IMG/VR virus record: IMGVR_UViG_648861009_000009
Source of the DNA: a virus
Taxonomy: Duplodnaviria; Heunggongvirae; Uroviricota; Caudoviricetes
Length of the DNA: 43,791 bases
Reading direction: 5' to 3' (one strand)
Below the pieces are notes generated by a model. It saw only the letters and a program-made list of their open reading frames with translations, made no database searches and was not told the DNA's origin. Shown piece after piece: positions 1,009 to 43,791 of this stretch (position 1 is the stretch's first letter; every line of letters starts with the position of its first letter). The position numbers and the translations under genes are program-made.

Positions 1009-1083
1009 GTCCTCTTAGTTAAATGGATATAACGAGCCCCTCCTAAGGGCTAATTGCAGGTTCGATTCCTGCAGGGGACACCA
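1009..1083 (+). tRNA. argW: tRNA-Arg (anticodon CCU)
   Basis: 75-nt sequence GTCCTCTTAGTTAAATGGATATAACGAGCCCCTCCTAAGGGCTAATTGCAGGTTCGATTCCTGCAGGGGACACCA; cloverleaf, CCT anticodon, 3' CCA. Confidence 0.9.
1069..1083. repeat. attL core (15-bp direct repeat, 3' end of argW)
   Basis: ctgcaggggacacca repeated exactly at 42088-42102. Confidence 0.75.
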
Positions 1084-1244: not shown

Positions 1245-2402
1245 ATGCTCACCGTTAAGCAGATTGAAGCAGCAAAGCCGAAAGAAAAACCATACCGCCT
1301 TCTCGATGGTAATGGCCTGTACCTTTATGTCCCTGTGTCAGGGAAAAAGGTATGGCAGCTTCGCTACAAGATTGACGGTAAGGAGAAAATCCTGACCGTC
1401 GGGAAATATCCGCTTATGAGTTTGCAGGAGGCAAGGGATAAAGCATGGACCGCGAGGAAAGACATCTCGGTTGGCATCGATCCGGTAAAAGCGAAAAAGG
1501 CTTCGTCTAACAACAATTCCTTTAGCGCCATTTACAAGGAATGGTACGAGCACAAGAAGCAAGTATGGTCAGTAGGGTATGCGACTGAACTTGCAAAAAT
1601 GTTTGATGACGACATTTTACCTATCATCGGCGGCCTTGAAATTCAGGATATTGAGCCGATAAAACTGCTGGAAGTAATCCGCAGATTTGAAGATCGCGGT
1701 GCAATGGAGCGAGCCAACAAAGCCCGCAGAAGATGCGGAGAGGTTTTCCGTTACGCTATTGTCACTGGTAGGGCTAAATATAACCCGGCACCTGACCTTG
1801 CTGACGCCATGAAGGGATACCGCAAGAAGAACTTCCCGTTTCTCCCAGCAGACCAGATCCCTGCATTCAACAAAGCACTGGCAACATTTTCAGGAAGCAT
1901 CATATCGCTCATTGCGACCAAAGTTTTACGCTACACAGCCCTAAGAACGAAAGAGCTTCGCTCCATGCAATGGAAGAACGTCGATTTTGAAAACAGGATT
2001 ATCACTATCGACGCCAGTGTGATGAAGGGCCGCAAAATTCATGTGGTCCCGATGTCAGACCAGGTGGTTGAACTTCTCACTACGCTAAGCTCAATCACCA
2101 AACCAGTCTCAGAGTTTGTTTTTGCCGGGCGCAACGATAAGAAGAAGCCAATCTGCGAGAACGCGGTTCTACTTGTGATCAAACAAATCGGCTATGAGGG
2201 TCTGGAAAGCGGTCACGGATTCAGGCATGAATTCAGCACGATTATGAACGAGCACGAATGGCCTGCTGACGCTATTGAAGTGCAACTTGCACATGCCAAC
2301 GGCGGATCTGTGCGTGGAATTTACAACCATGCTCAGTATCTCGATAAGCGCAGAGAAATGATGCAGTGGTGGGCGGACTGGATTGATGAAAAGGTGGGCT
2401 AA
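1245..2402 (+). CDS. intS: Tyrosine integrase IntS-type
   Basis: ORF 1209-2402 (GTG at 1209); ATG at 1245 gives MLTVKQIEAAKPKEKPYRLLDGNGLYLYVP matching remembered K-12 IntS; adjacent to argW. Confidence 0.88.
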   Translation: MLTVKQIEAAKPKEKPYRLLDGNGLYLYVPVSGKKVWQLRYKIDGKEKILTVGKYPLMSLQEARDKAWTARKDISVGIDPVKAKKASSNNNSFSAIYKEWYEHKKQVWSVGYATELAKMFDDDILPIIGGLEIQDIEPIKLLEVIRRFEDRGAMERANKARRRCGEVFRYAIVTGRAKYNPAPDLADAMKGYRKKNFPFLPADQIPAFNKALATFSGSIISLIATKVLRYTALRTKELRSMQWKNVDFENRIITIDASVMKGRKIHVVPMSDQVVELLTTLSSITKPVSEFVFAGRNDKKKPICENAVLLVIKQIGYEGLESGHGFRHEFSTIMNEHEWPADAIEVQLAHANGGSVRGIYNHAQYLDKRREMMQWWADWIDEKVG

Positions 2403-2493: not shown

Positions 2494-2793
2494 CTACGAT
2501 GCAAGAATCCATACCAATAAGCATCCGATAATTGGGAAAGAAAAATCCAACAAACTTCCCACATCCCACACGCGTGGATCAAAACCTCCCCACCACGGCA
2601 TGTTGACACGTTTCCCTTTCCCAAACTTTTCTATCCAGCGATATTCTGCCTGGGTGTGTTCACGCGCAATGAAGAACGTACAACCGGCTATCGCACCGTA
2701 AGCCCAGTTTCCGGTAAAAATACCAACCAGTACCTGAGCCGCAAAAGCGCAAAGCGAGTGAAGAAATGGAGTGACATCAATGCTCTTAATCAT
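2494..2793 (-). CDS. Small 3-TM membrane protein at the lysogenic-conversion locus (moron, function unknown)
   Basis: 99-aa ORF; start overlaps tailspike stop (ATGA); hydrophobic segments; occupies the slot between tailspike and int where gtrABC/oac lie in relatives. Confidence 0.55.
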   Translation of the reverse strand: MIKSIDVTPFLHSLCAFAAQVLVGIFTGNWAYGAIAGCTFFIAREHTQAEYRWIEKFGKGKRVNMPWWGGFDPRVWDVGSLLDFSFPIIGCLLVWILAS

Positions 2794-4930
2794 GAAACTT
2801 CCCCATTGGTTGAAAATATGGCTCCTCCAACTCCAAGTGTATTTCGTGTTGTGCTCAACCTAAGAGGGCTGGAGTCAGAATTAGAATATCCTGTAGCAGA
2901 AATAAAAGATCCTCCACTAATAGTCAACTGCGGAACATCGGCTATATCTGAATAAGTTCTGTCAGCAACAGTATTATTTATAGCCACATGTGATCCAAAA
3001 AAACTTCTTATTGTTTGGTTTTTAACTTTACTTCCTTCAATGGTTATCCTACTACCACAGTCAGCAATAAATCCTGAATCTGCATCCAGCGTTGCATTCA
3101 TAAAAGAAGCTTCAGATCTCTCTACATCAATCCATCTAATATCTTTTGTGGGATTTGCACCAAATACATGACAAATATTAGAGTTAAACCTTACACCATC
3201 TTGGAGGTGCATTAATTTTTTTATATCTGTACCCCATAGCCTTGGAAAATTAACAGATGCTCCTGCATGGCAATCAAATCCCAACTCAGCCCCTGAGATA
3301 TCTACAGCCTTTCCTGAAATAACAGCACCAGTGTCTGCATTAACGGCTGTTCCACAATTGCGCATATCATTACCAGCAATATCAACACAACTCGCACCAT
3401 CAATACGCACACCAAGTGCACATCCATAAAAACCTTTTTCAATATTTGGTTCAAGGACTTTACCACTTGTTTCTGCATCACTTTCTTCAACGTCATGTCG
3501 TCTTGCATCAACATATGCTGTATGAATGCAGGTTAATCCACGATATGAGCAATGTATAGTTTTATGGTCGCGTATATTAACATTTNNNNNNNNNNNNNNN
3601 NNNNNNNNNNNNNNNNNNNNNNNNNNNNNNNNNNNNNNNNNNNNNNNNNNNNNNNNNNNNNNNNNNNNNAACCATCTCTTACATTCCATCCTATATAACA
3701 ATAGCTTGCACTTGACCCCTGAAAATCTGCTTTAACATTATAAATACAATTAACTGACGCAACCGTACTCTCTGTGCACCGTTCAAACTTGCTTACAGGC
3801 ATTGATGCCTTGACATTATTTACCAGTTGCAGGGAAGAGTATCTGCTATAAGAAAAATCACATACGTAATACCCTTCTGGCATATATGCAGCAACACTTT
3901 CCTCATCAGGAGCACATCCGGTATGATATGCACTAATTTTTGCACCAAAGCTACCATGAATTCCAACGTAGAACTTTCGAGCACCTGAATACGGATAGAA
4001 ATTAAGTTCAGCTTTTTGAGTTACAATAAATGCACAAACATCGCTATCATCTCTATTTTCTTCAATCTGAATAGCAAATACAGGACTTTTTGCTGCATCG
4101 CAAATGTAAAATAAATATTTGTATTCGTAATACGTCCTAACAGTTTTAGTAAACAAACTGGTATCAGAGAAAACCACTGAGTCTTCTGATATTATTTTAA
4201 TCCATGATAAGTCACATCCTGCTGAAATTTCTATTTGCTCATTGAGCACAAAACCGGAAAGAATTTTAATTATGCAAAAGTCAATGCCATTTTTCCATAG
4301 TGGACGCAGTGCAACAGCCGAGTTTAGAGCATCACTAATAGATTTAAAATTACCATATTCCCCAACTGTTATTGTGAATGCATACCTGGAATTAAATACT
4401 GCGGCACTCTCTCCAGAGTTAATAGCTGCAGATATCATGTCATAATTTGATATAAAATCATTTGGCGTGATTATTTCTGCGTTTTTATTGTGCTGTGTTC
4501 TAAGTTTTGAATTTACATGAACACTTTTAACTGCAATACGGGAGTCGTCAACAAGTATTTCATTACCCTCTGTTGCTAACTCTTGTCTTAACTGATCCGG
4601 GTCATACTTCAGCACATTCGGAAAATTGAACTGCTGTGCACCATACGCATCATAAACAGCCATAGAATGGCCTTGCTCAGTTACGAATTTGGCAATCTGT
4701 CCGTTATATACAGGGTAACCAGCAGCGTTAATGATGATTGGTTGCGATACAGGAACGTGAGAACCGTCTTCATTCTCCACATAAACCTGAATCTGGTTTT
4801 CAGGATTTACAGGGTCAGTGTCAATTTTTCCGATATAAATTTTGCCATTGGCAACCGCTTTAAAAGAACGTGCCATAGTGAAGAGTTGCGAAGGCATCGA
4901 TACGATCACATTGGCTGTAATGTCTGTCAT
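2790..4930 (-). CDS. Tailspike protein, P22 gp9-type N-terminal head-binding domain plus distinct receptor-binding domain; interrupted by assembly gap
   Basis: N-terminus [43 protein letters not shown] matches P22 tailspike; ORF spans N-run 3586-3669. Confidence 0.85.
3586..3669. other. Assembly gap (84 N) inside tailspike gene
   Basis: Run of N. Confidence 0.95.
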
Positions 4931-4996
4931 TTAATTTGCTCCAGATACAATGAATCGCCGCAGCGTGGCTACGGTTGGTATTTGTTTTGTTTTTGA

Positions 4997-5015
4997 ACTA
5001 CGAAAATTTCGTAGT
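4997..5015. repeat. Perfect palindrome ACTACGAAA-A-TTTCGTAGT upstream of tailspike
   Basis: 9+1+9 inverted repeat read directly. Confidence 0.5.
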
Positions 5016-5065
5016 GCTATCCATCAAGGCCATCGCCGCTTAGTTGCTGCGGTGAATTTTGGGCA

Positions 5066-5089
5066 TAAAAAAACCCAGCCGAAGCTGGG
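5066..5089 (-). terminator. Rho-independent terminator downstream of ant
   Basis: Minus-strand CCCAGC-TTCG-GCTGGG followed by T7 tract. Confidence 0.65.
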
Positions 5090-5108
5090 TCGTTGCGTTG
5101 GTTATCTG

Positions 5109-6032
5109 TCAGTAGTTATGTACTGAAGGAGGTAATTCTTTATTCTTAAGTCTCATCCATGCTGAAAGATTCGTTGGTCCGTCTGGCTCATTAATATCAA
5201 CATCTCGTGTATGGTTGATTAAAACATCTCTCGCCATATCGATAATACGGGAGAACTCATAACCGCAGTCATGACATCTGCCGGAATAGTTCGATTGAAT
5301 TTGTTTTAATGCCGGATACAGTTCGCGGAATAATGCCTGTGAGCGGTTGGCATAATCCCATAACCATACAAGGCTGTTTGCTTCTTTTGCAGAAAGCTCG
5401 TTTGCTTTCTTCTCTTGTTTGCCAATGAACTCACCTTCAAGTGGAACTCGAGCTGCAAGTGACAGTGCTTCTGTAAACTGCTCCTCACTGATTTCTTTGT
5501 ACGAACATCCAAAATGGGATTTCAGTGACGACCACATGGTGATCATCGCCTTAGCCTGTTTTTCTTTTGGCAGAGACTGACCGCGACTCATGACGAGTTG
5601 TTTAATGGCTTCCTGCTGTTCAGTGGTAATTTTACCCGGCAACGCCTTTTTAGCTTTGCGTGGGTTAACTACATGGCCTTTAGTCCAGTACTCGTATAGC
5701 ACATCGTCACACTCTTCCTGATACTGGATTACCTTGTCGCGGATTTCAGGACGGACTTTGTTTGGTTGAATACTTGAAAGCCAAGCCGCAAATTTACGAA
5801 AGGCAAGACATGTCATTAACTGTTTACCGCCAGCAGAAGGTATTTCGATTTCCGAAATACCTTTGGCAAACCTCTGTTTTAACTTAACAAATTGAGCTGC
5901 CCAAACCATCCCCATGCCTTCAACAACAGGCTTCATAGGAACATAAGGCTCATTGTTAATTCCAACCAAAAAAAGATTTGTTCCGTGGAATGGAACATTG
6001 ATTGTGCGATCTGCAATTGCTAAACTAGTCAT
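5109..6032 (-). CDS. ant: Antirepressor Ant (AntA N-domain type)
   Basis: 307-aa ORF at the immI position adjacent to tailspike, downstream of arc-like gene; RBS AGGAA. Confidence 0.75.
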   Translation of the reverse strand: MTSLAIADRTINVPFHGTNLFLVGINNEPYVPMKPVVEGMGMVWAAQFVKLKQRFAKGISEIEIPSAGGKQLMTCLAFRKFAAWLSSIQPNKVRPEIRDKVIQYQEECDDVLYEYWTKGHVVNPRKAKKALPGKITTEQQEAIKQLVMSRGQSLPKEKQAKAMITMWSSLKSHFGCSYKEISEEQFTEALSLAARVPLEGEFIGKQEKKANELSAKEANSLVWLWDYANRSQALFRELYPALKQIQSNYSGRCHDCGYEFSRIIDMARDVLINHTRDVDINEPDGPTNLSAWMRLKNKELPPSVHNY

Positions 6033-6761: not shown

Positions 6762-7040
6762 ATGACAGATACCAAAGTGAACTTCAGAGAAACCATCTTC
6801 AAGGACTCAAGTGATGCTGTAAATGAGTATGCTGATGGATTTGCTTACTCGTCTTTTGGGGATGTCGGAGCAAGATTTGGTTCAATAGCATTTTTTAAGC
6901 ATGTTTCAGACTGGGTTAATAATGAGGAGATTCAGCCAGTTAGATACCAAATTGCCAACATTCGCATGAGTGAAAATCAACTTCTTGAACTGGCTAAGTA
7001 TATAGTTTCTCAACACGAAGAATCAAAAAAATTAAGCTGA
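6762..7040 (+). CDS. Hypothetical soluble protein, first gene of sieA-position cassette
   Basis: 92-aa ORF, RBS AAGGA, no TM. Confidence 0.5.
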   Translation: MTDTKVNFRETIFKDSSDAVNEYADGFAYSSFGDVGARFGSIAFFKHVSDWVNNEEIQPVRYQIANIRMSENQLLELAKYIVSQHEESKKLS

Positions 7041-7047
7041 CAGAGCC

Positions 7048-7608
7048 ATGATTACTTTTCCTGCCGTAAATGCTGATCATGCAGCGGAGAAAAAGAGAAC
7101 TCTTGGTCGTATGGGGTCGACAGGTGGCATAGGAGAAAAGTCCAATGCTTCGCCTCCAGTTACCAAGAATGATATAACCAAAAACAATAATATCGCTTAT
7201 CTTGGAAAACAATACACTGAGGAGCATGCTATGGGCAGCCCATCAAGAGAAGAGATTGACGCGAAGCTTGGTCAAAACAAAGCAGAAATTGAGTTAATAT
7301 CTGCTAACATGCGCGCTGAAATTTCAGCTTTCAGAGAATTCCAATCTAAGCAATTTACAGCTATGAATCAGTCCCTTAATGAAATTAAGGGACAGATATT
7401 CGCTAGCAATGGCGAAGTTGCAGGGCTCAAAGGTCAAATTGATGGCATTAAAACATCCATGACCGCGACCCAATGGCTCGTTGGTGCGGTTCTCGCTATG
7501 CTTGCGGTAATCATAACGCTTCCGCAGATTCAATCTTACTTCAAGGTTTCTGAGCCGACTGCGAAGGAAGCCGCTAGTGAAACCCATGATACCAAAATAA
7601 AGCAGTGA
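7048..7608 (+). CDS. Coiled-coil protein with C-terminal TM anchor (start may be 7231)
   Basis: 186-aa ORF; strong RBS GAGGAG before internal ATG at 7231; C-terminal WLVGAVLAMLAVIITLP. Confidence 0.5.
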   Translation: MITFPAVNADHAAEKKRTLGRMGSTGGIGEKSNASPPVTKNDITKNNNIAYLGKQYTEEHAMGSPSREEIDAKLGQNKAEIELISANMRAEISAFREFQSKQFTAMNQSLNEIKGQIFASNGEVAGLKGQIDGIKTSMTATQWLVGAVLAMLAVIITLPQIQSYFKVSEPTAKEAASETHDTKIKQ

Positions 7609-23225: not shown

Positions 23226-23693
23226 TCATTTCAGGCACTGCGTGTTGATGTATTCCTGCAGCGCTCTCAGTGATGTTTGGTCGCTGATGATTCCGGATCT
23301 GATACTGAGAACGTTTCGTCCAGCAACTGGAGAGAGTTCGACGGTGGCATCATTGCCCATGCCGGAGGTGCGGGAGGTTTCGGTTGAGGCTGGCACTTGA
23401 CACTTTCCTTTGACGAGCACCCTGCCACCATTATCAAGCTTGCGCCGAAGAGCATCATTTTCAGCTTTCGCATCAGCTAACTCCTTCGTGTATTTTGCAT
23501 CGAGCGCAGCAACATCACGCTGACGCTGCTGCATGTCAGAGATGGTGGCGGTCGCCTGCTTCAGCTCACTGACTTTTTTATCGCGCTGCTCTTTGTAGGC
23601 GATTGCGTTATCACGGTAATGATTAACAGCCCATGACAGACAGACGATGATGCAGATAACCAGAGCGGAGATAATCGCGGTTACTCTGCTCAT
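23226..23693 (-). CDS. Rz: Spanin inner-membrane subunit Rz
   Basis: [31 protein letters not shown] near-identical to lambda Rz. Confidence 0.9.
23267..23473 (-). CDS. Rz1: Spanin outer-membrane lipoprotein Rz1 (embedded in Rz)
   Basis: +1-frame ORF inside Rz; lipobox VAGC; Pro-rich. Confidence 0.75.
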
Positions 23694-24166
23694 ACCTCAA
23701 TCTCTCTGACCGTTCCGCCAGCTTCTTTGAATTTTGCAATCAGGTTGTCAGCCTTATGCTCGAACTGACCATAACCAGCGCCCGGCAGTGAAGCCCAGAT
23801 ATTGCTGCAACGGTCGATTGCCTGACGAATATCACCGCGATCAATCATCGGTAAAGCGCCACGCTCTTTAATCTGCTGCAGCGCAACAGCGTCCTGGCTT
23901 TTGGGAGAGAAGTCTTTCAGGCCAAGCTGCTTACGATAGGCATCCCACCAACGGGAAAGAAGCTGATAGCGCCCGGCTGCTGTTGATTTGAGTTTTGGGT
24001 TTAGCGTGACAAGTTTGCGAGGGTGATCGGAGTAATCGGTAAATAGCTCTCCGCCTACAATGACGTCATAACCATGATTTCTGGTTTTCTGACGTCCATT
24101 ATCAGTTCCCTCTGACCACGCCAGCATATCGAGGAACGCCTTACGTTGATTATTGATTTCCACCAT
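23690..24166 (-). CDS. R: Endolysin R (lytic transglycosylase)
   Basis: 158 aa; [39 protein letters not shown] near-identical to lambda R. Confidence 0.95.
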
Positions 24167-24473
24167 CTTCTACTCCGGCTTTTTTAGCAGCGAAGCGTTT
24201 GATAAGCGACCCAATCGAGTCAGTACCGATGTAGCCGATGAACACGCTCGTTATATAAGCGAGATTGCTACTTAGTCCTGCGAAGTCGAGAAGGTCACGA
24301 ATGAACCAGGCGATAATGGCGCACATCGTTGCGTCGATTACTGTTTTTGTAAACGCACCGCCATTATATCTGCCGCGAAGGTACGCCATTGCAAACGCAA
24401 GGATTGCCCCGATGCCTTGTTCCTTTGCCGCGAGAATGGCGGCTAACAGGTCATGTTTTTCTGGCATCTTCAT
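24150..24473 (-). CDS. S: Holin S (dual-start S107/S105)
   Basis: 107 aa; [34 protein letters not shown] near-identical to lambda S. Confidence 0.95.
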
Positions 24474-27135: not shown

Positions 27136-27308
27136 TTCCTCGCGCGATGTCTTAGCCACCGGATATCCCACAGGTGAGCCGTGTAGTTGAAGGTTTTTAC
27201 GTCAGATTCTTTTGGGATTGGCTTGCGTTTATTTCTGGAGAGTTTCGTTGGAAGGTATTTGCAGTTTTCGCAGATGATGTCGGTGATACTTCGTCGCTGT
27301 CGCCTCAT
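27132..27308 (-). CDS. ninE: NinE
   Basis: Internal start gives [22 protein letters not shown]...[14 protein letters not shown] matching lambda NinE. Confidence 0.75.
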
Positions 27309-28309
27309 GCCGCCCTCCTGACGCCCTGCCCGATCGCCATCAATGCCGCTTTGGATACGGTAGTAAACATCCGTCGAGGACTGATGAACGGTCGCCAAAT
27401 CAGCAGCATGGAGCCTTTGCTGTTTCCCTTCTTCTCTAGCCCCGTCGATGGTTCGATAAAATTAATCCGTCCATCAGTGATAATACGAACTTCGTCAACA
27501 CTCTCCAGAGCCTTGCTGAACCATCCGACTGACATATCCTCTGGCACAAGCATAACTACCGTCTGTCGCTGTTGTATGCACTGCTCAGCGGCTTTTTCCA
27601 CCCACGGCCTGATATTGCTGTACGGTGGGTTATTCCAGATTGCACCGTGGCTTACCCACTCAGAATTGAGCGCGTCGTCGGCCTCAGTTAGCCAGTGAGC
27701 GCACAGAGCATTTTTGNNNNNNNNNNNNNNNNNNNNNNNNNNNNNNNNNNNNNNNNNNNNNNNNNNNNNNNNNNNNNNNNNNNNNNNNNNNNNNNNNNNN
27801 NNNNNNNNNNNNNNNNNNNNNNNNNNNNNNNNNNNNNNNNNNNNNNNNNNNNNNNNNNNNNNNNNNNNNNNNNNNNNNNNNNNNNNNNNNNNNNNNNNNN
27901 NNNNNNNNNNNNNNNNNNNNNNNNNNNNNNNNNNNNNNNNNNNNNNNNNNNNNNNNNNNNNNNNNNNNNNNNNNNNNNNNNNNNAGCCTTGCTGAACCAT
28001 CCGACTGACATTATCCTCTGGCACAAGCATAACTACCGTCTGTCGCTGTTGTATGCACTGCTCAGCGGCTTTTTCCACCCACGGCCTGATATTGCTGTAC
28101 GGTGGGTTATTCCAGATTGCACCGTGGCTTACCCACTCAGAATTGAGCGCGTCGTCGGCCTCAGTTAGCCAGTGAGCGCACAGAGCATTTTTGTCGCTCG
28201 CTGCCGAATCCAGCCAGAATCCAAACTCAATATCCAGTGCATCAAAAAGCCAAAGCGGCGTTTGCCAGCAGTCCTTGTCGTGTGCTGGCGTATTTGATTT
28301 GATAGTCAT
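27305..28309 (-). CDS. Phage N6-adenine DNA methyltransferase (Dam-like), reading frame spans assembly gap and duplicated flank
   Basis: [19 protein letters not shown]...AIWNNPPYS (NPPY motif IV); gap 27717-27984; true gene probably ~180 codons. Confidence 0.7.
27717..27984. other. Assembly gap (268 N) flanked by ~200-bp duplicated sequence
   Basis: 27510-27716 repeats at 27985-28190 with a 1-nt indel. Confidence 0.9.
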
Positions 28310-28752
28310 GCAGCCTTCCCTTTTCGTTGTGACCATTCATACTCTCGCCGGGAGTCATCACTCCACCGCACGTTGCGCTCTGAGCCGAACCAGAACATGA
28401 TTTCGATAAGCTCAGTCATGCTGGCCTTTCGCATTTTGCTGGTACGCACGCCAAGCATAACAACGCCACCGTCGATACCAGGCGCACTTCGTTGCTCCAG
28501 TTTTTTGGTCTTAAGCCACAGGGCAGTGAACAGATCTTTCCAGTCCTCCGGCGCAAGTCTCTCTCCATGCCAGAGCACCTGACGCGATACGTCCTGCAAT
28601 AACGCCCACATAAGGCGGTTTTGAGGATTGCTCCGCTTTGGTTCTTTAATGTGGACTTCGTGAGGTGACTTGTCGTCGATCGGAAGTGAGAGTATTGCGT
28701 CTATGGCGTTGTTTCTGATTGCTTCGTTGCGAAGCATGTATATTTGCTTCAT
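28306..28752 (-). CDS. ninB: NinB (recombination mediator)
   Basis: SNPQNRLMWALLQDVSRQVLWHGERLAPEDWKDLFTA and C-terminal WS...EW match lambda NinB; start at MKQIYML. Confidence 0.8.
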   Translation of the reverse strand: MKQIYMLRNEAIRNNAIDAILSLPIDDKSPHEVHIKEPKRSNPQNRLMWALLQDVSRQVLWHGERLAPEDWKDLFTALWLKTKKLEQRSAPGIDGGVVMLGVRTSKMRKASMTELIEIMFWFGSERNVRWSDDSRREYEWSQRKGKAA

Positions 28753-42014: not shown

Positions 42015-42087
42015 AATAGCGGGTAAAATATTTCTCACATCTAAAAAACATCATTCTAATCAATCCCCTGTCACGTCAAGTAGATGT

Positions 42088-42102
42088 CTGCAGGGGACAC
42101 CA
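42088..42102. repeat. attR core (15-bp direct repeat of argW 3' end)
   Basis: ctgcaggggacacca identical to 1069-1083. Confidence 0.75.
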
Positions 42103-42543: not shown

Positions 42544-43791
42544 CTATATTGCTGAAGGTACAGGCGTTTCCATAACTATTTGCTCGCGTTTTTTACTCAG
42601 GAAGAAAATGCCAAATAGCAACATCAGGCAGACAATACCCGAAATTGCGAAGAAAACTGTCTGGTAGCCTGCGTGGTCAAAGAGTATCCCAGTCGGCGTT
42701 GAAAGCAGCACAATCCCAAGCGAACTGGCAATTTGAAAACCAATCAGAAAGATCGTCGACGACAGGCGCTTATCAAAGTTTGCCACGCTGTATTTGAAGA
42801 CGGATATGACACAAAGTGGAACCTCAATGGCATGTAACAGCTTCACTAATGAAATAATCCAGGGGTTAACGAACAACGCGCAGGAAAGGATACGCAACGC
42901 CATAATCACAACACCGATAAGTAATGCATTTTTTGGCCCTACCCGATTCACAAAGAAAGGAATAATCGCCATGCACAGCGCTTCGAGTACCACCTGGAAT
43001 GAGTTGAGATAACCATACAGGCGCGTTCCTACATCGTGTGATTCGAATAAACCTGCATAAAAGACAGGAAAGAGTTGTTGATCAAAAATGTTATAGAAAG
43101 ACCACGTCCCCACAATAAATATGACAAAAACCCAGAAGTTTCGATCCTTGAAAACTGCGATAAAATCCTCTTTTTTTACCCCTCCCGCATCCGCCGCTAC
43201 ACACTGGTGACCCTTATCTTTAAAACGCATGTTGATCATCATAAATACAGCGCCAAATAGCGAGACCAGCCAGAAGTTGATATGGGGACTGATACTAAAA
43301 AATATGCCGGCAAAGAACGCGCCAATAGCATAGCCAAAAGATCCCCAGGCGCGCGCTGTTCCATATTCGAAATGAAAATTTCGCGCCATTTTTTCAGTGA
43401 AGCTGTCAAGCAAACCACATCCCGCCAGATACCCCAGGCCAAAAAAGAGCGCCCCCAGAATTAGACCTACAGAAAAATTGCTTTGCAGTAACGGTTCATA
43501 AACGTAAATCATAAACGGTCCGGTCAAGACCAGAATGAAACTCATACACCAGATGAGCGGTTTCTTCAGACCGAGTTTATCCTGAACGATGCCGTAGAAC
43601 ATCATAAATAGAATGCTGGTAAACTGGTTGACCGAATAAAGTGTACCTAATTCCGTCCCTGTTAATCCTAGATGTCCTTTCAGCCAAATAGCGTATAACG
43701 ACCACCACAGCGACCAGGAAATAAAAAAGAGAAATGAGTAACTGGATGCAAAACGATAGTACGCATTTCTGAATGGAATATTCAGTGCCAT
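42544..43791 (-). CDS. cscB: Sucrose:H+ symporter CscB (LacY-family MFS)
   Basis: 415 aa, 12-TM, matches remembered E. coli CscB; csc locus is known to lie near argW in sucrose-positive strains. Confidence 0.85.
   Translation of the reverse strand: MALNIPFRNAYYRFASSYSFLFFISWSLWWSLYAIWLKGHLGLTGTELGTLYSVNQFTSILFMMFYGIVQDKLGLKKPLIWCMSFILVLTGPFMIYVYEPLLQSNFSVGLILGALFFGLGYLAGCGLLDSFTEKMARNFHFEYGTARAWGSFGYAIGAFFAGIFFSISPHINFWLVSLFGAVFMMINMRFKDKGHQCVAADAGGVKKEDFIAVFKDRNFWVFVIFIVGTWSFYNIFDQQLFPVFYAGLFESHDVGTRLYGYLNSFQVVLEALCMAIIPFFVNRVGPKNALLIGVVIMALRILSCALFVNPWIISLVKLLHAIEVPLCVISVFKYSVANFDKRLSSTIFLIGFQIASSLGIVLLSTPTGILFDHAGYQTVFFAISGIVCLMLLFGIFFLSKKREQIVMETPVPSAI

Follow-up and report, generated by a model that had tools for sequence, protein, structure and literature searches.

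The DNA analysed here, in its full length of 43,791 nucleotides (the window), is a segment of an E. coli chromosome that begins with yfdC (1-933) and argW and continues into a P22-like (Lederbergvirus-type) prophage of ~41 kb. The prophage is bounded by a 20-nt att repeat, found at 1064-1083 and again, as the attR copy, at 42083-42102, and a host LacY-family permease lies beyond it at 42544-43791. Its late operon ends at the left, where the tailspike gene is followed by a small open reading frame (ORF) that faces the convergent intS. The same locus is present in strain MS 198-1 with 99% identity. The features of this left end are:

1009-1083, plus strand: tRNA-Arg(CCT), argW, whose 3' end (1064-1083) is the attL core (ARAGORN; direct repeat).
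1245-2402, plus strand: integrase IntS of the CPS-53/KplE1 type, which runs towards the small ORF (RefSeq annotation for the nearly identical locus of MS 198-1; ORF list).
2424-2457, no strand: 14-bp inverted repeat, with a loop of 6 nt, in the gap between intS and the small ORF, which converge (repeat search).
2494-2793, minus strand: small ORF, predicted inner-membrane protein and full-length member of PHROG 1443 (ORF, profile match, AlphaFold, invariant residues, dN/dS).
2779-2781, minus strand: codon 5 of the small ORF (ATT), apparent recombination junction, at which the ATG start of most relatives lies (blastn boundaries, junction sequences).
2790-2793, minus strand: ATGA, four-base overlap of the small-ORF start with the tailspike stop (direct sequence reading).
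2790-4930, minus strand: P22-type tailspike, made up of an N-terminal head-binding domain and a receptor-binding domain of low GC (Pfam Head_binding, E 3.8e-66 for the copy of MS 198-1).
2798-2804, minus strand: weak Shine-Dalgarno-like GGGGAAG inside the tailspike coding sequence (sequence).

The small ORF is the sole gene between tailspike and int, as a preliminary description of this DNA had stated, and only 91 nt separate its stop (2494) from that of intS (2402). Within this interval the arms of the inverted repeat (2424-2437 and 2444-2457) are 93% complementary, and the 14-bp repeat is a candidate two-way transcription stop; a terminator scan made no call at the 2424-2457 hairpin, and no T-run follows it. 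The tailspike gene appears split solely through an artificial run of 83 Ns at 3587-3669. This run is an insertion, in that 2141 minus 83 gives 2058 nt or 685 aa, the length of the annotated MS 198-1 tailspike, and the alignment with phage JEP4 runs straight across it. The tailspike is evidently intact, the N run notwithstanding.

On the minus strand, the sequence that precedes the small-ORF start is ...GGGGAAGTTTC ATG A..., and the junction reads TTC ATG A, with the ATG of the ORF at 2793-2791 and the TGA of the tailspike at 2792-2790. Direct reading of the sequence thus confirms the overlap of start and stop codons claimed earlier for a 99-aa ORF. The ATG at 2793 is the sole canonical in-frame start 5' of the first hydrophobic helix, and the JEP4 annotation uses the equivalent ATG, while the PGAP model of MS 198-1 is a 95-aa protein that begins at the ATT of codon 5. 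Judged from the sequence, the annotation is to be corrected, with the start at the ATG at 2793 and not at PGAP's ATT.

Codon 5 is also where the history of the locus changes. In blastn comparisons, DNA homology to phages 611R6, phage 21 and PhiR41_1 begins exactly at this codon, which is ATG in all three and ATT in the window, and in the case of 611R6 the homology extends onward through int. The base composition steps at the same junction, from a GC content of 0.33-0.40 in the receptor-binding domain to 0.46-0.48 in the small gene and int; the small gene differs from the tailspike in this respect and equals int. A swap of the tailspike may have put the junction on the original start codon of the small gene, now ATT. 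The translation start would then have shifted four codons upstream, to an ATG fused with the tailspike stop, and the protein would be made alongside the late proteins via translational coupling.

The signals around this start were also considered. The Shine-Dalgarno-like GGGGAAG (2804-2798) stands only 4 nt from the ATG, and phage 21 has a strong AAAGGAGG at the equivalent position. No promoter-like sites were found within 1.4 kb upstream of the ORF on the minus strand, and promoter-like counts matched the shuffled expectation both in the region and in relatives, with no promoter better than chance. Because the Shine-Dalgarno sequence is weak and no promoter-like site was detected, coupling to the late tailspike message is the simplest reading. 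The suggestion that the gene might also be expressed in the lysogen is unsupported, since no promoter is detectable and the ORF runs in the direction of the late operon.

JEP4 has this ATGA junction too, and so do 6 IMG/VR loci and 5 loci whose spike is of 729 aa. The 729-aa spike has the receptor-binding domain in common (89% identity over 545 aa), but its N-terminal anchor is a different, non-P22 one. The presence of the shared junction and receptor-binding domain on a different anchor therefore argues that the domain and the small gene move as a unit. In other relatives the distance from the gene for the receptor-binding protein (RBP) to the small gene ranges from overlap up to 284 nt, and the upstream sequence varies with each RBP. 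Most relatives have their own Shine-Dalgarno sequence and a gap of 10-284 nt before the gene, and several have a terminator-like hairpin in this gap. The ATGA coupling is thus a local feature of the recombination, specific to this junction. Conserved translational coupling to the tailspike as a family trait was considered and rejected; the coupling is confined to this type of receptor-binding domain.

The ORF list and its translation give an open frame of 99 aa at 2494-2793 on the minus strand, of which residues 5-98 align to positions 1-94 of the 97 in the PHROG 1443 profile (E 9.1e-54). PHROG 1443 carries no functional annotation, and the RefSeq entry is a 'hypothetical protein' (WP_024166873.1). 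Phages JEP4 and HZ41 encode an identical 99-aa protein; known members include JEP4_21 and CPT_21_24 of phage 21, the latter annotated 'putative membrane protein'. The window protein is like other PHROG 1443 members in profile, helix layout and position after an RBP gene, which relatives that are identical or 75-90% identical to it share; its start alone is shifted, by four codons upstream (MIKS). Most members start with 'MD(I/V)TP' and have their own ribosome-binding site, and the window protein is extended by MIKS. The family length is ~95-100 aa, and the window protein is full-length.

The family is large. When 5.8 billion proteins were searched by a word index, 424 relatives came back, every one 'hypothetical' and none with a Pfam domain. 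When a profile was run exhaustively against 1.84 billion cluster representatives, 435 clusters at 50% identity matched, and those listed are stand-alone proteins of roughly 60-140 aa. Among complete E. coli genomes, 1,918 of 5,426 (about 35%) carry the gene, with a median of two copies and up to seven. Family hosts include Alpha-, Beta- and Gammaproteobacteria and Desulfovibrio, and in the species-representative set nearly all are Gram-negative, the two exceptions being metagenome bins of Collinsella and Dehalococcoidia. The PhiR phages that carry the gene reportedly come from the work of Brenes & Laub in 2025. The idea that the ORF is a novelty private to this prophage cannot be kept for a PHROG 1443 gene that about 35% of complete E. 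coli genomes carry and that recurs in many types of phage. From its sequence, the ORF is a member of a catalogued, very common and functionally blank family, and not a singular substitute for gtr or oac.

The homology and structure searches proposed in the preliminary description placed the ORF in PHROG 1443, gave a confident three-helix model and yielded no characterised homologue. Pfam (at E<=1), NCBIfam, PADLOC and PDB-sequence searches found no relative of the window protein. No meaningful match in Pfam, NCBIfam, PADLOC or PDB emerged from 52 distant members, whether scanned singly or as a profile, and fold searches detected no similarity to characterised exclusion, conversion or defence proteins. 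An MlaA match (E 0.15) and scattered Pfam matches of single members were rejected as noise. No paper on the family came up in literature searches that covered small membrane proteins encoded next to tailspikes, phrog_1443, JEP4 and the prophages of the ECOR panel.

Conservation is sharply focused. The conserved motif reads AREHTQAEYRWI...GKRxNMPWWGGFDPRVW, and in alignments of 60 close and 52 distant members R44, E45 and W76 are invariant down to about 30% identity. Nearly invariant across distant relatives are H12, Q48, A49, E50 and P87, and D83 is invariant among close members. The window protein has all of the family-wide residues H12, R44, E45, Q48, E50, W76 and P87. Cys occupies position 38 in 60/60 close homologues and not throughout the distant set. 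Pairwise comparison of E. coli-type copies, among which dS reaches 0.9, gave a median dN/dS of 0.16, with 0.08 in residues 30-77 and about 0.24 in the flanking helices. The protein is evidently under strong purifying selection, and is neither a remnant nor a chance ORF.

These values bear on the notion that the gene is a functionless hitch-hiker, conserved DNA that serves only as a 3' homology anchor for the exchange of RBP cassettes. A sharp break in homology at the start of the gene, upstream of which the RBP sequences are unrelated, would be expected of such an anchor, as would the fragments that remain after tailspikes in phages HC6, anhysbys and KFSST3. However, a dN/dS of 0.08-0.16 with dS up to 0.9 denotes strong purifying selection, invariant residues are kept across bacterial classes at 30-40% identity, and reading frames are intact in hundreds of clusters, so that a functionless role is highly improbable.

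The most telling result is the genomic linkage. In six or more phage types, which differ greatly, the gene comes directly behind the most distal receptor-binding gene. P22-type tailspikes of at least 8 kinds precede it, including one of the K1-endosialidase type, and the epsilon15-like phage phiv142-3 has the order tailspike, gene, membrane protein, holin, endolysin. Lambdoid side-fibre tips (after stf) precede it in phage 21, in a Qin-like prophage of E. coli C and in many IMG/VR prophages. In P2/HAP-1-like phages the gene lies between the tail fibre (or assembly protein) and the next tail gene (sheath), in a Comamonas prophage it follows a J-like tip protein, and it is also found between the Mtd-like gene and the Avd gene of diversity-generating retroelements. 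An SSU5-like phage-plasmid carries it after the RBP, and there is a copy on a small plasmid as well. The lytic Cobetia phage Carin-5 has an intact copy between tailspike genes, a metagenomic phage has the gene directly upstream of a holin-muramidase-spanin cluster, and HC6, anhysbys and KFSST3 have decayed fragments after their tailspikes. Among linked copies, overlapping stop and start codons with the RBP gene are frequent.

A survey of 39 loci in species-representative genomes of Alpha-, Beta- and Gammaproteobacteria and Desulfovibrio gave the same picture, in that all functionally annotated PHROGs among the top 25 upstream-neighbour families belong to tails or tail fibres. On the downstream side, a search for a conserved partner found none, the neighbours there being heterogeneous. 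Two exceptions to the linkage were noted: in one lytic phage the gene follows a dCMP deaminase in an early-type region, and in Aeromonas jumbo phages it lies elsewhere. The RBP partners themselves are structurally diverse, and comprise tailspikes, fibres with S74 chaperone domains, and Mtd-like and Laminin_G-type tips. From these gene orders the protein evidently travels at the 3' edge of RBP cassettes.

Such linkage could reflect a direct service to the RBP, with the protein acting as a membrane factor for the folding, trimerisation, membrane staging or attachment of tailspikes and fibres. The strong positional link to the most distal RBP gene, with stop and start codons that frequently overlap, speaks for such a helper, and so do the intact copy between the Carin-5 tailspike genes and the joint movement of the receptor-binding domain and small gene onto a different N-terminal anchor. 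A helper would, however, have to be one nearly invariant protein for structurally unrelated RBPs. P22-type tailspikes fold unaided, without a helper, and many P22-like phages are without the gene; virulent phages, moreover, often carry a decayed remnant, and some members lie in early regions distant from the tail genes. We consider a helper function quite improbable.

The structural prediction offers other clues. An AlphaFold2 model built on a 60-sequence alignment (pLDDT 91.7) has helices at 8-27, 30-57 and 78-98, with helix 1 and the first half of helix 2 paired as a tight hairpin. The three-TM label of the preliminary description is roughly right: of the three helices only the first and third are strongly hydrophobic, and the first half of helix 2 is moderately so. 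Segment 44-77 averages about 5.5 Lys/Arg, and the N-terminus, the helix 1-2 turn and the C-terminus average <0.5 each. From these counts, the positive-inside rule and the helix register alone, we infer an inner-membrane protein whose loop 44-77 and N-terminus lie in the cytoplasm and whose C-terminus lies outside. The helix register would place H12, E45 and D83 at the same depth, ~one and a half turns from the cytoplasmic face, with R44, H46, Q48, E50 and the Trp-rich MPWWGGFDPRVW stretch probably beside them. Helix 2 also contains G33xxxG37, which would point to packing of helices or to oligomerisation, and this motif, the residue-38 Cys and the invariant polar residues would fit a binding or catalytic site combined with oligomerisation. 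Since the conserved part probably faces the cytoplasm, direct masking of the surface receptor, which had been raised as a possible role, is argued against, and it is unlikely if the predicted topology holds.

The family shares size, helix number and an occasional position before a lysis cassette with the class I holins (three TM helices, about 100 aa). Those holins have a charged C-terminal tail, whereas the window protein has none and ends within helix 3; it has instead a long conserved loop, predicted to be cytoplasmic, and gives no match to holin profiles. A role as the holin of this prophage was rejected, the window having a complete holin/endolysin/Rz cassette at 23226-24473, 20 kb from the small ORF. 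A broader lysis-related role, as an antiholin, holin modulator or lysis-timing factor made late with the virion proteins, would suit a membrane protein that is small, has three helices and is both coupled to late genes and oriented like them. It would also suit the position directly upstream of lysis genes in phiv142-3 and the one metagenomic phage, and the weak match of one distant member to Phage_holin_8 (E 0.0036). The complete cassette 20 kb away and the absent charged tail count against this role, as do the heterogeneous downstream neighbours and the fact that lysis genes are not nearby in most contexts (P22-like, lambdoid, P2-like and SSU5-like), which leaves a lysis factor unlikely.

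The positions that the gene occupies are familiar ones. The tailspike-int interval of P22-like phages, the tailspike-holin interval of epsilon15-like phages, the tail fibre-sheath interval of P2/HAP-1-like phages and the post-stf position of lambdoid phages are classical lysogenic-conversion or moron slots. The earlier statement that Sf6, P22 and KplE1 relatives carry O-antigen conversion genes between tailspike and int stands: the slot now occupied by the ORF contains gtr or oac genes in K-12 CPS-53, P22 and their relatives, those of CPS-53 being yfdGHI. In P22, gtrCBA lie in the same slot in the opposite orientation, with their own promoter and with attP between gtrA and int. Tblastn with P22 GtrA, GtrB, GtrC and SieA and with 611R6 OafA found nothing in the window, and Pfam searches of ten other unassigned ORFs of the window found no glycosyltransferase or acyltransferase, in agreement with the claim that such genes are missing here.

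The possibility that the ORF is a truncated remnant of a conversion gene, which had been named as grounds for abandoning the original proposal, was rejected on two counts: the ORF belongs at full length to a ~95-aa family, and it has no similarity to GtrA, GtrB, GtrC, OafA or another acyltransferase. It does not match GtrA (PF04138; about 120 aa, 4 TM), and no gtrB or gtrC is adjacent; nor does Pfam match it to acyltransferase-3 (about 330+ aa, about 10 TM) or a fragment thereof. An arrangement of the Iap type (D3, epsilon15), in which a phage wzy polymerase gene neighbours that for a small hydrophobic peptide, is not present: the ORF is alone in the tailspike-int interval and so has no polymerase gene beside it. 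Among 130 related loci, tblastn of the sampled flanks detected OafA in 1 (the 611R6 type) and Gtr in 0. The proposed strict replacement of conversion genes does not survive the case of phage 611R6, which has the gene alongside the O-acetylase OafA. As far as these loci show, the gene usually replaces the classical conversion genes yet may coexist with them. This would fit 'another occupant of the conversion slot', with the proviso that the same slot need not mean the same job.

The known conversion systems (P22/SfV gtrABC, Sf6 oac/OafA, D3 iap and the epsilon15 polymerase inhibitor) are like the ORF in slot, in specifying a membrane protein and in almost never coexisting with it. They differ in that the ORF has neither a GtrA or acyltransferase domain nor a partner glycosyltransferase or polymerase. 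Compared with P22 gtr in particular, the ORF is oppositely oriented, lacks a promoter of its own like that of gtr, and is conserved across classes rather than serotype-specific.

A surface-glycan conversion factor of a different kind is possible, if doubtful. Such a protein would inhibit or retune undecaprenyl-phosphate-linked assembly of O-antigen or capsule, at initiation, flipping, polymerisation, chain-length control or ligation, in the manner of Iap or the epsilon15 inhibitor, and would thereby reduce a glycan phage receptor. This proposal draws on the gtr/oac slot adjoining glycan-degrading tailspikes, including the K1 endosialidase type, on the coexistence with Gtr or OafA in only 1/130 related loci, and on the nearly exclusive Gram-negative hosts. 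The conserved site, furthermore, is predicted at the cytoplasmic leaflet, where lipid-linked sugars are built. Against it, the protein is conserved across classes whereas Wzy, Wzx and O-antigen genes are hypervariable, which would require the target to be a conserved step, and late-only expression would allow no time for LPS remodelling. OafA is present alongside in 611R6, the gene also follows lambdoid side-fibre tips and lies in early regions of lytic phages, and similarity to GtrA or acyltransferases is lacking.

The reading that we tentatively prefer, at low confidence, is that the ORF specifies a late-expressed inner-membrane accessory protein with a putative exclusion-like protective role, exerted through a conserved inner-membrane component. 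The protein would bind or modify such a component of the Gram-negative envelope at the cytoplasmic leaflet, with H12, R44-E45-H46, Q48, E50, D83 and the Trp-, Arg/Lys-rich loop 44-77 facing the cytoplasm. The hypothetical target may be some lipid-linked intermediate of the envelope or a protein involved in DNA entry, and the infected or lysogenic cell would gain protection from further phage attack in the style of superinfection exclusion.

Several observations touch on this exclusion-like role. The window is without SieA, Gtr and OafA, and family members occupy conversion or moron slots, both of which are in keeping with it. Exclusion proteins are usually found among early genes, and exclusion genes are usually expressed in the lysogen; some lytic phages indeed carry the family gene among early genes, while the window ORF is co-oriented with the late operon and has no detectable promoter, which speaks against exclusion. 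The protein also has no homology to a characterised exclusion, conversion or defence protein, and the diversity of the partner RBPs and ejection machineries offers no obvious common target.

P22 SieA, T4 Imm and HK97 gp15 are likewise small phage inner-membrane accessory proteins, but no similarity to them in sequence or fold was detected for the window ORF. Kinship with SieA, Imm or gp15 found no backing in Pfam, annotated-PHROG or PADLOC matches, and tblastn with P22 SieA was negative. In addition, sieA of P22 is driven from its own promoter and read in the direction opposed to the late operon, whereas the window ORF is coupled to a late gene.

A bolder form of this proposal, which we regard as rather unlikely, is that the family represents a new class of tiny membrane-embedded enzyme or regulator carried with RBP cassettes across morphotypes. 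Its H-(R)EH-E-D cluster would act on one conserved step of the Gram-negative envelope (e.g. an undecaprenyl-phosphate-linked intermediate or an inner-membrane machine) and would confer protection or conversion independent of the receptor. A third of E. coli genomes would in that case have, in this family, a general and minimal alternative to gtr/oac modules.

The interest of the ORF lies in the family, which is ubiquitous, has a sharply conserved polar motif and is tied to host-range genes across phage morphotypes. The gene is among the commonest unannotated genes of E. coli prophages, and has no Pfam family, solved structure or published phenotype. Should it change the surface of the cell or its susceptibility to phages, it would act as a hidden and widespread determinant of phage-host specificity, with a bearing on phage therapy, on the engineering of tailspike cassettes (the gene moves with the receptor-binding domain) and on the biology of serotypes and lysogenic conversion. 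Otherwise, it would still be a useful marker for the 3' recombination boundary of RBP cassettes.

There is precedent for accessory envelope proteins that are encoded beside tail-fibre genes and spread with them, as the ORF does, in T5 Llp, phi80/N15 Cor and lambda Lom. These are outer-membrane proteins or lipoproteins directed at one receptor each, whereas the window ORF has no signal-peptidase II motif, is predicted to be an inner-membrane protein with a conserved domain facing the cytoplasm, and belongs to a family with many different RBP partners. In E. coli C, Lom lies in the same tail-fibre region as the family gene.

The receptor-binding domain of the window tailspike recurs in a prophage from IMG/VR (L025), where it forms part of a 729-aa spike (L025 2815-5004); the two domains match at 89% identity over 545 aa. 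The N-terminal anchor of the L025 spike is unlike that of the window tailspike and is without the Pfam Head_binding domain. The pair is a clear case in which one receptor-binding domain was transferred between phage types, with the small membrane gene moving along with it.

The window copy of the tailspike gene carries a run of 83 N (3587-3669), which is a pure insertion. Once this run is removed the gene is 2058 nt long (685 aa), the same as in E. coli MS 198-1, and the alignment with phage JEP4 spans the run with one base in between. Because the run disrupts the reading frame, the window tailspike appears as two ORFs. The annotation of the small membrane gene also differs in MS 198-1, where the RefSeq/PGAP model of the homolog (L001 4595-4882, equivalent to window 2494-2781) is 95 aa long and begins at an ATT (window 2781-2779), bypassing the ATG equivalent to window 2793, which shares bases with the stop codon of the tailspike gene. 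This choice of start probably reflects the use of protein-cluster homology in start placement.

In lambdoid loci, a conserved protein of about 92 aa and unknown function (phrog_1361) is encoded by a gene that overlaps the stop of the side-tail-fibre gene. It was located in three loci that carry members of the small membrane protein family:

L002 (phage 21), 4710-4988, phrog_1361 gene
L100 (E. coli C), 3995-4276, phrog_1361 gene
L007, 3716-3994, phrog_1361 gene

The phrog_1361 gene directly precedes the small membrane gene in phage 21 and PhiR41_1, while in E. coli C a distinct gene, for a distal "tail fiber domain" protein, separates the two. The phrog_1361 protein may be an uncharacterised fibre-assembly factor. 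In phage 21, the small membrane gene is directly followed by a complete sitABCD iron/manganese transporter operon (L002 5386-8835), which is encoded on the other strand.

In Comamonas nitrativorans and Pigmentiphaga humi (L129 and L131, about 3290-5190), the family member lies between an upstream protein of ~370-380 aa and a 128-aa ORF that begins 4 nt past it. Two downstream neighbours in the locus set match Avd of diversity-generating retroelements (phrog_3206), and our guess is that these are the two 128-aa ORFs. If so, the family member in both loci would sit between a retroelement target gene and avd.

Several other window genes deserve mention:

6762-7040, plus strand, phrog_4231 ORF, function unknown
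7048-7608, plus strand, phrog_5820 ORF, function unknown
27305-28336, 343-aa ORF with a Dam (N6-adenine methyltransferase) domain
42544-43791, minus strand, LacY-family sugar/proton symporter (E 7e-193)

The first two are transcribed against the late operon and, with the ejection-protein genes on one side and the immI (ant) region on the other, take the position held in P22 by sieA, of which the window has no homolog; they are candidates for accessory genes expressed in the lysogen. The Dam domain is matched in two stretches, and the ORF contains an exact direct repeat of ~209 nt (27509-27716 and 27985-28193, spacing 476-477 nt), perhaps a duplication within the methylase gene. The symporter ORF, at the right edge past attR, is host DNA outside the prophage.
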